Assembly: GCF_009834535.1 (NCBI RefSeq)
Contig: NC_045696.1
Coordinates: 40,054,001 to 40,118,000, forward strand
Direction of reading: 5' to 3'
Length of the DNA: 64,000 nucleotides
Source: Camelus ferus
Taxonomy: Eukaryota
Shown here: piece after piece, positions 45,934 to 51,868 of the stretch
Position numbering within the stretch: the first letter of the stretch is position 1
Layout: each line of letters opens with the position of its first letter
The notes under the pieces: generated by a model
What the model was told of the DNA's origin: nothing
Seen by the model: only the letters and a program-made list of their open reading frames with translations
Database searches by the model: none
Made by a program: the position numbers and the translations under genes

Positions 45934-48900
45934 CCTTTCCACTACAAGGAGCTAGGGAAAAAAAACCTAAGCCCAAAATTAGCAGAAGGAAGGAAATTTT
46001 AAGATAAAAGCAGAAATCAATGAAATAGAGAGTAGAAAAATGATAGAAAAGACTGACAAAACTAAGATTGGATTTTGAAAATATAGACAAAATTGAAAAA
46101 CCTTTAGCTAGAATAAATCAAAAAAATAAGATAGTACTCAAATAAGTAAAATTACAAATGAGAGAGAAGATATTACAACTGATACCACAGAAATATATTA
46201 TATAGTACATAGTATATAGTATAGGACAATTATACACCAACAAATTGGCAACCTAGAAGAAATGAATAAATTCCTAGAAACACAAAACCTACCAGGACTG
46301 AATGATGAATAAATAGAAGATGTGAACGGAATACTGAATAAGGCTATTTGGTCAATAACCAAAAATCTCCCAACAAGGAAAAGCCCATGACCAGATGGAT
46401 TCACTAGAGAATTCTAGCAAACTTTAAAGAAGAATTAACATCAATCCTTCTCAAACTCTTCCAAAAAATTGAAGAGGAGGGAATGCTTCCAAACTCATCC
46501 CATGAAGCTAGCATTACCCTGATAGCAGAGTCAGATAAGGATATCACAAGAAATGAAAATCACAGGCTAATATTCCTCATAAATATAAATGCAAAAATTC
46601 TCAACAAAACACTAGCAAACTAAATTCAACAGCATATTTGAATGGATCATACAGCATGACCAAGTGGAATTTATCCCTGGGATGCAAGGACATTTCAACA
46701 TTTATGAAAATCAATCAACGTGATGCACTACATTAACTGAATAAAGGATAAAAATTACATAGTCATCTCAGTAAATGCAGATAAAGATTTGGCAAAATTA
46801 ACATTCTCTTATGATAAAAACTCAATAAATTAGGTATAGAAGAAATGTACCTCAAAGTAATAAAAGCCATATATGACAAGCCCACAGCTAACATCTGGCT
46901 CGATGAAAAGTTGAAAGCTTGTTCTCTAAGATCAGAAACAAAGTAAGTGTGCTCACTCCTACCACCTCTATTCAACATAGTACTGAAAGTTTAGCCTGAG
47001 CAATTCAACAAGAAAGGAAACAAAAGGCATCAAAGTTAGAAAGAAAGAAGTAAAACTGTCTCTGTTTGCAGATGACAGGATCTTATGCATATAGAAAATC
47101 CTAAAGATTCTACCAAGACTCTAAGCACTAATAAATTCAGTAAAGTTGCAGGATACATAATCAATCTACAAAAATCAGTTCATTTCTATACACTACAATG
47201 AACTATCCAAAAAAGAATTTAAGAAAACAATTCCATTTACAATAGTACCAAAAAGAATAAAATACCTAGGAATAAACTTAACCAAGAAGGTGAAAAATGT
47301 GTACACTGAAAACTATAAAATACTGATAAAAGAAATTGAAGAAGACACAAATAAATGGGAAAATGTCCTGTACTTATGGTTTGGAAGAATGAGTATTATT
47401 AGAGTACACATAGTCTGAAAAGTCATCTACAGATTTAATATAATCCTTGTTAAAATTCTAATGTTATTTTTCACAGAAATAGAGAAAACAATCCTAAAAT
47501 CCATATGAAACTACAAATGATCCCAAATAGTTAAAACAGTCTTGAATAAGAACTCTGAACAAACTTTTGAACAAGGTCATTGATGGAAGGTCACACTTCC
47601 TGATTTCAAAATATATTAGAAAGCTATAGAAATCAAAACTGGCATAAAAAGAGTATAGGCTAACGGAAGAGAAAAGATAGCCTAGAAATAAATTCATATA
47701 TTTGTGGCCAACTGATTTTCAACAATTGTGCCAAGAATAACACTCTTCAATAAATACTGTTGGGAAAACTGGATATCTACATCCAGAGGAATGAAATTGG
47801 ATCCATATTTCACACCATATACAAAAACAAATTCAAAATGGATTCCAGACTTAAATTTAAGACCCGATAGTATAAAACTCTAGAAGAAAACATAAGGAAA
47901 AAGCTTCTTGACATTGGTCTGTGCAATGATTATTTTTAGATATGCTCCCAAAAGCACAAACGACAAAAGTGAAAATACACGAGTGGGATCACATCTAACT
48001 AAAACGCTTTTGCATAGCAAAGGAAACAGTCAACAGAGTGAAAAGGCAACCTACAGAACGAGGTGGGGGGGACTGCAAGTAACACGTCTGATAAGGAACT
48101 AATATCCAAAATATATAAGCAACTCCTACAACTCAATAGCAAAATATAAAATGAAAGATAAACTGACGAAAATATGGGTAAAAGGCCTGAATAGACATTC
48201 CCCAAAAGAAAACATACAAATGGCCATCAAGTATAGAAAAAGTTGTTGAATATCACTAATCATCAGAGAAATGTGAATAGAAACAACAATGAGATATTAC
48301 TTCAAACCTGTCAAGATGGCAATTACTTAAAAACAAAAAAATAACAAGTGTTGGCAAGGACGTGGAGAAAAGGGAACTCTGGCACAGTGATGGAGGGAAC
48401 GTAAATTGGTACAGCCATTATGGAAAACAACAAGGAGGTTCATCAAAAATTAAAAATAGACTACCTTATAATTTAGCAATCCCACTCTGGGTATATATCT
48501 AAAAGAAGCAAATTCAGTATCTCAAAGAGTATCAGCACTCCCATGTTCATTGTAGCACAATAGCCAAGATATGGAAATGACTTAAGTGTCTGTCAATGGA
48601 TGAATGAATAGAGAAAATGTGATATATGTATATAATAGAATATTATTTAGCCTTAAAAAAAAAAAAAAGAAATTCTACTATTTGTGTCAATGTTAAGTGA
48701 AATAAGCCAGACACACAAAGACAAATACTGCATGGTATCTCTTATATGAACAGCATAAAAAATTTAAACTCTTAAAAACAGAGGGTAGAATGATGATTGC
48801 CAAAGGTTAGGGGTATGGGGGAAACAGGATGTTGGTCAAAGGGTACAAAGTTTCAGTTTGAAAGATGATTAAGTTCTGGCAACCATTATAGCATGGTGAC

Positions 48901-49010
48901 TAGTTAATACTGTAGTGCATGCTTGAAATGTGCCAAACAGAGTAGCGCTTAAGTGTTCTCACCACACCCACAAAAATGCTAAGTGTGAAGTTTATGGACA
49001 TGTTTAATAG
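45934..49010 (+). mobile_element. L1MA-like ORF2 and partial 3' UTR (its 5' stub lies at ~43215-43272)
   Basis: Continuous degenerate ORF2 (ctgtttgcagatgacagg near 47065). 3' UTR 'gcttaagtgttctcaccac' is cut off at ~49010. Confidence 0.9.
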
Positions 49011-49274
49011 TTTCTAGACGTGACACTAAAAGTACAATTCATAAAAGGAAAAAACCGAGAAATTGGATCTCATTAAAAAAAATTTTCCTGTGAAAGACCT
49101 TGTGATAAGGATGTAAAGACAAGTTACAGACTAGGAGAAAACATTTGCAAACCACATATACAACAAAGAACTAGTATCTTTGATATATAGAGAACATCAA
49201 AATCCAGCAGTAAGACAAACAATCTAGTTAGAACAAGGGTAAAGGAGGTAAAGACACATTCACTGAGAATGAAA

Positions 49275-49720
49275 GCCTCCGTCTCCAGGACGCCGGCACC
49301 ACAGCGCGGCCCGGCTGACACAGGGCCTTTTTCTCCCCAGAATCTTGACGCCATCCCTCCCAGCCCAGCCGGGACCATGTTCACCTGTACCTGTCGGTAA
49401 AGGAATGGCTGCTGCTCCTCAGCCCCCTCCTCCTCCTCCATCATCACAGCAAGCGGGCCCTGCGGCTGGAAGGCCCAGTAGGATTTTCCCGCCAGGGCAC
49501 CAGGCCGCGCGGCAAAGTGGGAGACCGGTAGCCAAAGCGAGAAGGTGCCGCCTGCTTGGCGCGTGCTCCCTGGCGGCGGCTGTGGGAAGGGTGCCTCGCG
49601 GCCAGCTGCTCCAGCCCCACCCCGGCGCCCTTGGGGACTCCACACCCAGCTCAGTGCCCCGCTCAGTAGTTAACACAGTTCTTGGAAACGCGCGGGAGGG
49701 CGTGCGTGCGTGTGTCTGTA
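49275..49720. promoter_or_regulatory. Small CpG island with an E2F site (TTTTCCCGCCA, 49484-49494)
   Basis: Roughly 30 or more CpGs by hand count in ~440 bp; the only such cluster in the window. Exact TTTSSCGC match. Confidence 0.75.
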
Positions 49721-49866
49721 GGGACAGCAGTACACAACCCTTTGTAAATTCCATGCTGTTGTAACCTGGGTAGGCCTTGCAAAATGCAATGTGGGTTTTT
49801 ATAATTCTGTCACTGTACAGTCAATAAGTCAGATGGGTAAATGCTTGATTTCTATCCCATTTAGTG

Positions 49867-49902
49867 AATAAACTGCTCACCCCATTAACACTGGGGAAAA
49901 AA
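49867..49902 (+). terminator. Candidate polyadenylation signal and residual A-run
   Basis: AATAAA at 49867-49872; A6 at 49897-49902, at the insert/L1 junction. Confidence 0.4.
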
Positions 49903-51868
49903 CGTACAGATGGCAAGTAAGCACAGGGAAAAAAATCAACATAATTAGTCAGTAGGTAAATGCAAATTAAAGCCACAAGGAGATATTACAATGGCTATTA
50001 GAATGGCTAAAATAAAAGAACAGTGACAACACGAAATGTTACTAAGGATACAAAGAAATTGGATCACTCATATATTGCTGGTAGGAATATAAAATGGTAC
50101 AGCCACTATGGCAAACAGTTTGGCAGTTTCTTCTAAAACTTAAAACACATTCACCACACAACCCAGCAGTTGGACTTTTGGGCATTTATCCCAGAGAAAT
50201 AAACACTTATGCTCACTTGAAATCTCTATCTGAATTTTTATAGATTTATTTGTATTAACCAAAACTGTTAACAGCCTAGATGCCCTTCAATAGGTGAATA
50301 GTTAGACTGTGGTACAATCATACCATGAACTACTCAGGAGAAAAAAAAACCAAACCCGTTGATACACATGACAATCTCTCCAGAGGATTATGCTAAGTGA
50401 AAACGACTCTCCAGGGAATTCTGCTATATGAAAAGATTACATACTGTATGATTCCTTTCATATAACATTCTTGAAATAACAAAACTACAGAAATTAAAAA
50501 CAAATTGTTTGTCAGGGATGCAAGAAGGGCTGGGGATGAGAGAAGTGGGCGTGGCTAAAAAAAGGGCAACATGAAGAATCTTTGTCATGATATACATGTT
50601 CTATATCTTTTCATATCAATTTCAATTTTAATTTCCTGGCTATAATATCACAGTATAGTTTTGTAAGATGTTACCATTGGGGAAAACTGAATACAGGGTA
50701 CATGAGATCTCCCTGATAATTTTTACAACCACTTGTGAATCTATAATTATCACAAAAACAAAAAGTTTAGAAAACAATAATGTTTTTAAAGGAAGGAGCC
50801 CAGCATTGAATTCAGAAGACCTTGTTTTTGTTCAGTATCACTACTCAGGAGCCTATGACTTTGAGTAAGTCTCTTCGACTTTCAGAACCATGGTTTTCTA
50901 ATATGTAAAATGTGTAGATTAGATAAATTGACTTCTGAAATCAAGTTACAATTGTATGATTCTTTGATAGGTTTTTATTTCCTAGTAAAGAATGTATGCA
51001 TAAAATACACCATTCTCCATACAACTGAAATGGAGTAGATGGGGATTATCTCAGATCTGGGAAAACAGGCACACCCAACTGTGGAGATCCTGCACTTGGG
51101 AAAGACCATTTGCTTGCTTATTAATGGACCAATCTCTGAAGTGTCCTCAACCCAGCCCAAGATAGCATTTCCCCATGTTAGAGATGAGAAACCGGTTTAA
51201 GATACAATTAGAAACTCTACCTTCTCAGCCTACCAGAAGATCAAATAAATATTTCCATTACAGAATTTTTTTTTTCACTTTTTCAGAAAGCCAAACTTTT
51301 CCCAAACGCTGTTTCACAGGGAGAGGAGATAACCCCCATATGTATGGCAGGTCCTTTAATTCACTCTAGCTTCTATATTGAGTTTGGCTTAGTTATCAGG
51401 ACTAACATGTTTACATGACATTTGGAGCATGCTTCTACTGGTCTTCTGTCTGTCACCAGTTAATAAGACTCCAAAACAGTCTGGGTATAAATCCACTGCT
51501 CTTGCTGAAAGCTAGTCTATAAATATTATATTCACACAGTGGTTTTTATCAAGTTATTTTTTCTATTAAAATCTAAAAGGTCTTCAAGGAACTTTAAAGA
51601 AACAAAATTATTATTTAAAAACCACACGACTTTTAAATTCACAAAGGTTTTTCTTAAAACAGTTATACTATTATCCTGAGTTCAAGTTGCATTGGTACTG
51701 CTATATACACACAAAATAATAGAGTGACATAATTCTGTGTGTATAATTCACACCTTGTAATACACACAAAACAATGGAATAATGAAAGTTTGGGAGTGTC
51801 CTCTTGTGATTCTAACTAATTAACTATGGAAATTATCCTATATGCTTAAATATAAAGCTGGGGTCCCT

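Follow-up and report, generated by a model that had tools for sequence, protein, structure and literature searches.

A copy of the CENPS promoter region within an old L1 fragment of Camelus ferus and its probable origin from an antisense RNA

The insert, its host L1, and the parent gene

We studied a 64,000-nt stretch of the Camelus ferus genome (the window), in which a GC-rich insert of 630 bp splits an L1 fragment without the loss of any L1 bases. Positions are those of the window unless a contig is named, and the features are listed in Table 1. Between about 49200 and 49800, the G+C content (in 200-nt intervals) climbs from 0.30-0.39 to 0.55-0.70 and then falls back. On the plus strand, the insert is an antisense copy of the 5' region of CENPS: it takes in exon 1, the adjoining first part of intron 1, and about 450 bp of sequence before the start codon. 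An earlier note on this DNA had described the insert as starting in CENPS intron 1 and crossing exon 1 and the promoter on the plus strand, and alignment to the parent gene agrees with this.

We defined the limits of the insert by comparing the host L1 with 29 other L1 copies from the same 2.09-Gb assembly, several of which align to both flanks. The longer alignments of the left flank show 67-75% identity to other L1 copies, with short matches of up to 86%, and the right flank is 73-79% identical to them. The right-flank alignments start mostly at 49904-49910, with outliers at 49889-49901 and at 49936-49940. In the five copies whose coordinates we checked (L019, L021, L023, L040, and L035), the L1 sequence that breaks off at 49274 resumes at about 49905, to within 2 nt, and no bases are lost or duplicated. 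More broadly, the alignment of 27 of the 29 copies is consistent with an uninterrupted L1 between these positions; the two copies that were left out have right-flank matches that start late. Because the L1 copies continue from 49274 to about 49905, we place the insert at 49275-49904. The span that had been proposed for it, 49261-49910, does contain the insert, but these limits are narrower.

The genuine CENPS gene lies on contig C13, where exon 1 reads MMEEEEGAEEQQRFSYRQ. A splice acceptor 3.3 kb downstream of exon 1 opens in phase with RLKAAVHYTVGCLCEE... (RLKAAVHY...), and this exon 2 stretch and one further exon match the Pfam family CENP-S (PF15630). The two matching exons, at C13:7002746 and C13:7007279, share the strand and phase of exon 1 and follow it at distances of 3.3 and 7.8 kb. 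The window copy at 49276-49893 corresponds to C13:6998976-6999571, with 71% identity by BLAST or 81% over 535 gap-free columns, and the exon-1 peptides of the copy and the parent match at 16 of 18 positions. Since the window copy holds the promoter and an intron with its GT donor, it did not come from a spliced mRNA. Just four loci in the 2.09-Gb assembly have this CENPS 5' region: the parent on C13, the window copy, and two sister copies on contigs C9 and C32. No further copies were found, including when a longer parent query was compared with the same assembly.

Table 1. Features of the insert and of the L1 fragment around it
Feature	Position	Strand	Basis or remark
Host L1, left part (ORF2-region fragment, old and diverged)	49006..49274	+	Left-flank alignments stop at 49266-49274
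Left 14-mer, CACTGAGAATGAAA	49261..49274	+	Belongs to the L1, as alignment to the family shows; unproven as a target-site duplication
Single G	49275	+	Between the L1 and the first parent-templated base; C13, C32, and C9 all have C in this column
Copy of CENPS intron 1, first 115 nt, with GT donor at 49390-49389	49276..49390	-	Alignment to the parent on C13 and to the other copies; the donor follows the exon-1 ORF
Copy of CENPS exon 1, coding, 18 codons, MMEEEEGAEEQQPFLYRQ	49391..49444	-	ORF translation; the GT donor then follows
Copy of CENPS 5' UTR, core promoter, and upstream region	49445..49893	-	49893 is the last position homologous to C13:6998976-6999401 and to the C32 and C9 copies
AATAAA	49867-49872	+	21 nt before the end of parent homology
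GGGAAAAAACG, 11 nt, with A6 at 49897-49902	49894..49904	+	Templated by neither the parent nor the sister copies; not needed for L1 continuity
Host L1, right part	49905..50769	+	In L1 coordinates, follows directly on 49274; aligned to 29 L1 copies

Ends of the three copies

Identity between the window copy and the parent ends at 49893 (...TTAACACTG; ...CACTG), 21 nt after AATAAA. Aligned to the 11 nt that follow in the window, the parent reads ACCAAGGAG and the two sister copies read ACGAAGGAG and ATAAAGGAG. Because the parent and the sister copies read otherwise after 49893, the A-run is non-templated, and GGGAAAAAA at the 3' end of the window copy has no template in the parent on C13; three of the six A's do coincide with a parental A. 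The A-run, a candidate remnant of a poly(A) tail, is just 6 nt long, with GGG between the last templated base and A6 and with CG between A6 and the L1. The earlier note had placed AATAAA and, 24 nt after it, A6 at these same positions. It had also put A6 exactly at the junction, which does not hold because CG stands between A6 and the L1. It had suggested that an end of parental identity here, followed by a non-templated A-run, would favor retroposition, and that an A-run belonging to the parent or to the host L1 would speak against it: identity does stop at ...CACTG, the A-run is absent from the parent, and neither the parent nor L1 continuity accounts for it.

A poly(A) signal 10-30 nt before the tail is expected of an L1-mediated retrocopy, and the hexamer of the window copy falls within this range. 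The antisense strand of the parent has three hexamers (AATAAA, ATTAAA, or AGTAAA) in 1.8 kb, and 3.5% of its positions lie 10-30 nt behind one of them. At the site of the window's AATAAA, the C9 copy also reads AATAAA. Since the parent and the C32 copy read AACAAA there, the hexamer in the window may have arisen after insertion.

We also considered whether the window copy is flanked by a target-site duplication. The left 14-mer and the right 14-mer (49889-49902) match at 10 of 14 positions. With the same search slack, this match has P = 0.074 against 5000 random window positions and P = 0.21 against 3000 purine-rich positions, and five of the 10 matching positions (CACTG) are also templated by the parent. 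Because the match is no better than chance, there is no demonstrable target-site duplication at the window copy: the 14-mer search with slack found no significant one, and nothing is duplicated in L1 coordinates. This agrees with the original description, which gave these 14-mers, their 10 matches, and the lack of a clean duplication. The window target, ...GAATGAAA/TACAG, is not a TTTT/A site, and no T-run that could serve as a primer stands beside the A-run. At the other end, the G at 49275 could be a mutated C or, more speculatively, an extra G derived from a cap. The intron end, which in the window abuts the L1, carries no T- or A-run. There is no junctional microhomology at the window copy either: the CACTG of the L1 lies 9 nt inside the left breakpoint, and the parental bases just before the start of the copy, GCGC or CACG, differ from the GAAA of the L1.

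The case for an RNA origin rests mainly on the sister copies. The C9 copy corresponds to C13:6998893-6999597, with 86-91% identity and an internal deletion of about 165 bp, and the C32 copy corresponds to C13:6998893-7000272, with 71% identity. Both have the same polarity as the window copy, and both have an A-rich 3' end in the antisense reading. Their antisense ends fall on one parent nucleotide, C13:6998893 (...ACTCAA), which is 19 nt after AGTAAA and 83 nt beyond the end of the window copy on the parent. Past this shared end, the C9 copy reads AAATAAAGAGGAG (starting with AAATAAAGAGG) and the C32 copy reads AATAAAAAAAAAAC, with 12 A's in 13 nt; the parent reads CGTCGGATC (CGTCGG). The A-rich tails of C9 and C32 have a T early on in common, which could point to a shared intermediate. 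Because the A-rich ends are promoter-upstream in all of the copies, the polarity of the template was antisense to CENPS.

The C9 copy also has a target-site duplication. Its flanks, AAGAAAAAGAGGAG and AAAATAAAGAGGAG, match at 12 of 14 positions (P = 0.0018 for random positions and P = 0.03 for purine-rich positions). The duplication begins at CAAT/AAGAAAAAG, or TTCTT/A on the other strand, which resembles the TTTT/A-type sites that the L1 endonuclease prefers (PMC5110952). The left flank of C9 is a dispersed repeat with at least 300 candidates, and the repeat homology stops at the junction. The 290-bp piece that adjoins the C9 copy has no other copy in the genome, and a local alignment of the right flank to the L1 set scored 23.5, which is barely above the shuffled sequences (null maximum of 22). 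At C32, no 13-mer with two or fewer mismatches was found near the border as a duplication. A younger repeat of about 400 bp (more than 1235 candidates with 89-92% identity) hides the 5' border of this copy, and there is no second matching repeat within 19 kb. We rejected a continuation of the C32 copy past this younger repeat: in local alignment, the homology score to the parent (12) was the same as the mean for shuffled sequences (12).

Could the insert have been captured as DNA? A double-strand break in the L1 might have taken up promoter DNA from CENPS, by copying or by ligation, either as filler DNA or through switching of a replication template, with no RNA step. A clean patch repair would leave the L1 with no base lost or gained, as is seen here, and GGG and CG beside the A-run could be non-templated additions; the lack of a significant target-site duplication and of a TTTT/A site at the window copy also fits. 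However, capture of DNA gives no reason for an end 21 nt after AATAAA, and it leaves unexplained both the target-site duplication of C9 and the common end of C9 and C32, 19 nt after AGTAAA and with A-rich continuations. The earlier note had offered capture at a break by microhomology as its alternative, and the ends of the copy show no junctional microhomology. We consider a DNA-level origin to be quite unlikely. The other reading in that note, the retro-capture of an antisense promoter transcript, is supported by the non-templated A-run and by two sister copies of the same polarity.

The 5' ends of the window and C9 copies are about 26 nt apart in intron 1 (C13:6999571 and about C13:6999597), both inside the CpG island. 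That two of the three 5' ends lie within about 26 nt suggests a start site rather than random truncation. The 5' end of the C32 copy falls in the last 36 nt or so of an L1-type repeat in CENPS intron 1. This repeat is an L1-type 3' end in antisense orientation, a fragment of about 440 bp that is mostly 66-81% identical to its copies, and up to 89% identical over short stretches. Such a repeat raises the question of an orphan L1 3' transduction or read-through, in which the RNA of a retroelement, or of another gene inside or beyond CENPS, ran antisense through the promoter and was truncated at its 5' end. Transductions typically vary at the 5' end and share a fixed 3' end, and the position of the C32 end, within the repeat, also fits. 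On the other hand, the repeat has no promoter of its own because it is an old fragment of about 440 bp, we found no L1 ORF2-3' homology within 10 kb on either side in the parent (using the L1 copies from this analysis as queries), and two of the three 5' ends cluster. With an old fragment as the source and no other L1 ORF2-3' homology nearby, we rejected a 3' transduction from the intron-1 repeat, and we regard this family of explanations as very improbable.

A sense-strand route is hardly credible. It would have a CENPS pre-mRNA from a far-upstream start site retro-copied together with the promoter, and carry-over of promoters through upstream start sites is indeed described (PMC2386082). But the RNA would have to end, and carry its tail, in intron 1, where the intron end abuts the L1 with no A- or T-run, and the route is contradicted by the polarity, as the A-rich end is promoter-upstream in all three copies.

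Age, relationships, and CpG content

Distances at non-CpG positions among the parent and the window, C9, and C32 copies are nearly equal (Jukes-Cantor [JC] distances of 0.12-0.17 over 276 columns). From this near-equality we conclude that the three copies are of similar age, roughly 0.07 substitutions per site old. The tree of the four sequences has conflicting support: 10 informative sites and a 9-bp indel group the window copy with C32 against the parent with C9; eight sites, including AATAAA versus AACAAA, group the window copy with C9 against C13 with C32; and one site groups the window copy with the parent.

These relationships bear on a variant of the RNA route, in which the window copy was reverse transcribed from the RNA of an earlier retrocopy (C9 or a lost intermediate). 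At both ends, the C9 copy extends beyond the window copy; the two share the eight sites just mentioned, including the hexamer; and of the six pairs, they have the lowest non-CpG distance (0.117). However, the 10 sites and the 9-bp indel join the window copy with C32 and C9 with the parent, and three of the eight shared sites reflect the decay of CpGs, a kind of change that recurs in parallel. In addition, all four sequences are about equally far apart, and the window copy lacks the internal deletion of about 165 bp seen in C9. We view a secondary copy as unlikely.

The copies differ in their CpG content. Counted against CpGs that are common to at least two of the other sequences, the parent retains 29 of 37, the C32 copy 27 of 33, and the C9 copy 23 of 30 (77-82% for the two sister copies). 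The window copy retains just 13 of 44 (30%), and 18 of the 31 CpGs that it lost have become TG or CA. Similarly, the ratio of observed to expected CpGs is 0.91 in the core of C32 and 0.99 in C9, so that these two have ratios of 0.9-1.0, like the parent; it is 0.61 in the window copy and 0.13-0.44 in the flanks. At a similar age, then, the promoter copies on C9 and C32 look as if they remain CpG-island-like, and the window copy looks methylated and decaying, as judged from base composition.

A proposed antisense RNA and its relation to known systems

In the reading that we favor, with a probability of roughly 0.65, the window insert arose by reverse transcription of an antisense RNA of CENPS that was polyadenylated but not spliced. 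Transcription would start some 115-145 nt into intron 1, within the CpG island, and the RNA would run back over exon 1 and the core promoter and on into the upstream DNA for about 450 bp; the plus-strand reading of 49445-49893 would be its 3' part. After cleavage 21 nt beyond AATAAA and addition of a poly(A) tail, an L1 reverse transcriptase acting in trans would have copied this RNA into the old L1 fragment on another chromosome. The C9 and C32 copies would have come from the same transcription unit, using the next poly(A) site 83 nt further on. The borders, the A-run, the sister copies with their shared end, and the C9 duplication are observed directly; from these we infer an antisense RNA, its start site, and the L1 machinery. 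If the variant with a secondary copy is included, an RNA route for the window copy is quite likely.

RNA-labelled sequencing runs were examined for words from C13:6998850-6999650. Four runs from one study (X1-X4) contained 0.80-0.87 of the sampled words, and one run from a second study (X7) contained 0.50, with counts that are strand-blind and that could also stem from DNA. The word content of these runs lends slight support to the antisense RNA.

Integration in the window could have taken either of two forms: classical target-primed reverse transcription (TPRT), with a duplication that has since eroded, or the patching of a break by a polyadenylated cDNA. Both are RNA routes.

Retrocopies are usually thought to arrive without promoters. 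If our reading is correct, an antisense RNA that starts just inside a gene carries the complete promoter to new places, and orphan CpG islands and alternative promoters would have a simple origin. It is possible, and we suggest it tentatively, that promoter-crossing antisense RNAs duplicate whole CpG-island promoters, that a single RNA of this kind gave rise to the three loci here in a short time, and that copies kept themselves unmethylated at their ectopic sites and could serve as new promoters. The parent and its three copies of similar age form a natural series, in which one copy has decayed and two are CpG-island-like. Short-lived promoter RNAs may reach the L1 machinery of the germline often enough to leave fossils.

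Like processed pseudogenes and other L1 retrocopies of mRNAs, these are dispersed single copies, and the L1 reverse transcriptase presumably acted in trans. Unlike processed pseudogenes, they retain an intron, include the promoter, and have the opposite polarity to the gene.

Upstream antisense RNAs of CpG-island promoters terminate at proximal poly(A) signals. The proposed RNA resembles these upstream antisense RNAs (PROMPTs) in that it would end where the first poly(A)-type hexamers occur upstream of the promoter. Its putative start in the first intron resembles that of downstream antisense (convergent) RNAs, a likeness of location and not of distance from the host start; for these RNAs, the host and antisense start sites are 2-2301 bp apart (median of 413 bp), according to a 2025 Nature Genetics study (PMC11735407). 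Both kinds are normally short-lived nuclear RNAs, whereas the RNA proposed here would have left retrocopies. Within the limited collection of literature that we searched, we found no report of retrocopies of promoter-crossing antisense RNAs.

It has been proposed that promoters can be retrotransposed when a sense RNA starts upstream of them (Okamura and Nakai 2008, PMC2386082). As in the case set out there, a core promoter would have been moved to a new locus via RNA. In that case, the RNA was a sense, spliced mRNA and part of the promoter was carried; here, it would be an antisense, unspliced RNA that includes the promoter in full, with about 450 bp of sequence before the start codon.

The closest relatives are templated sequence insertions. 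As outlined by Onozawa and Aplan (2016, PMC5110952), those of class 1 arise when L1 ORF2p acts in trans on polyadenylated intronic or intergenic RNA, and those of class 2 are RNA-derived patches at breaks. Nongenic retrocopies are thus already known, and the window insert is a variant in which a promoter was crossed in antisense. Like the insertions outlined there, it has a nongenic, unspliced donor on another chromosome and stops 10-30 nt past a cryptic poly(A) signal. The C9 copy resembles class 1, with a target-site duplication at a TTTT/A-like site, and the window copy resembles class 2, with no duplication and a few untemplated bases. In contrast to the donors in that outline, the donor here is a CpG-island promoter that was crossed in antisense and used three times. 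The window copy also differs in that it mixes the two classes: the signal-proximal end and the short untemplated A-run are like class 1; the lack of a duplication and of a TTTT/A site, and the stray G, GGG, and CG, are like class 2, yet there is no deletion and no microhomology. Thus, at this locus a signal-proximal end and a short A-run occur together without a target-site duplication.

Insertion sites of the window and C9 copies, and nearby L1 fragments

Both the window copy of the CENPS promoter region and its sister copy on contig C9 apparently lie inside L1 ORF2-type fragments, although the flanks of the C9 copy can be assigned to L1 only weakly. Subject to that weak assignment, both copies have the orientation of the L1, and in its coordinates their sites are separated by only some 60 bp. 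This closeness could be due to chance or to an A-rich hot spot.

The window also contains a second L1 fragment, and the two fragments share one ORF2 region. This second fragment precedes the host L1 by about 500 bp on the upstream side and has an identical orientation; an A-run lies between the two. At the parent locus, intron 1 of CENPS holds an old L1-type 3' end fragment, antisense to CENPS.

Coordinates of the features discussed
Feature	Sequence	Position
Window copy, insertion site	window	49274/49905
Second L1 fragment	window	47810-48507
A-run	window	~48655-48669
C9 copy, insertion site	C9	36496394
Piece adjoining C9 copy (L011/L012)	C9	36495479-36495826
L1-type 3' end fragment (L047)	C13	7000237-7000674
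C32 copy (L069)	C32	23500062-23501373
Young repeat (L069)	C32	23501374-23501770

A piece adjoining the C9 copy

A piece of about 290 bp directly adjoins the C9 copy and also interrupts the repeat that this copy splits. The junction between the repeat and the piece is spanned by the C9 duplication. No visible duplication or tail of the piece's own was seen, and no further copies were found in the genome.

Borders and composition of the C32 copy

The C32 copy starts within the last ~36 nt of the L1-type fragment in CENPS intron 1. Its 5' border (in the direction of the inferred antisense RNA) is the exact end of a young, roughly 400-bp repeat, which has over 1235 candidates at 89-92% identity; at this border, the repeat shows no visible duplication that would belong to it.

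This 1.3-kb copy is a strong CpG island amid CpG-poor flanks: its core has a GC content of 0.75 and a CpG observed/expected ratio of 0.91. The CENPS start codon is gone (GTGGTGACG). The C32 copy is a candidate that might be a working orphan promoter.
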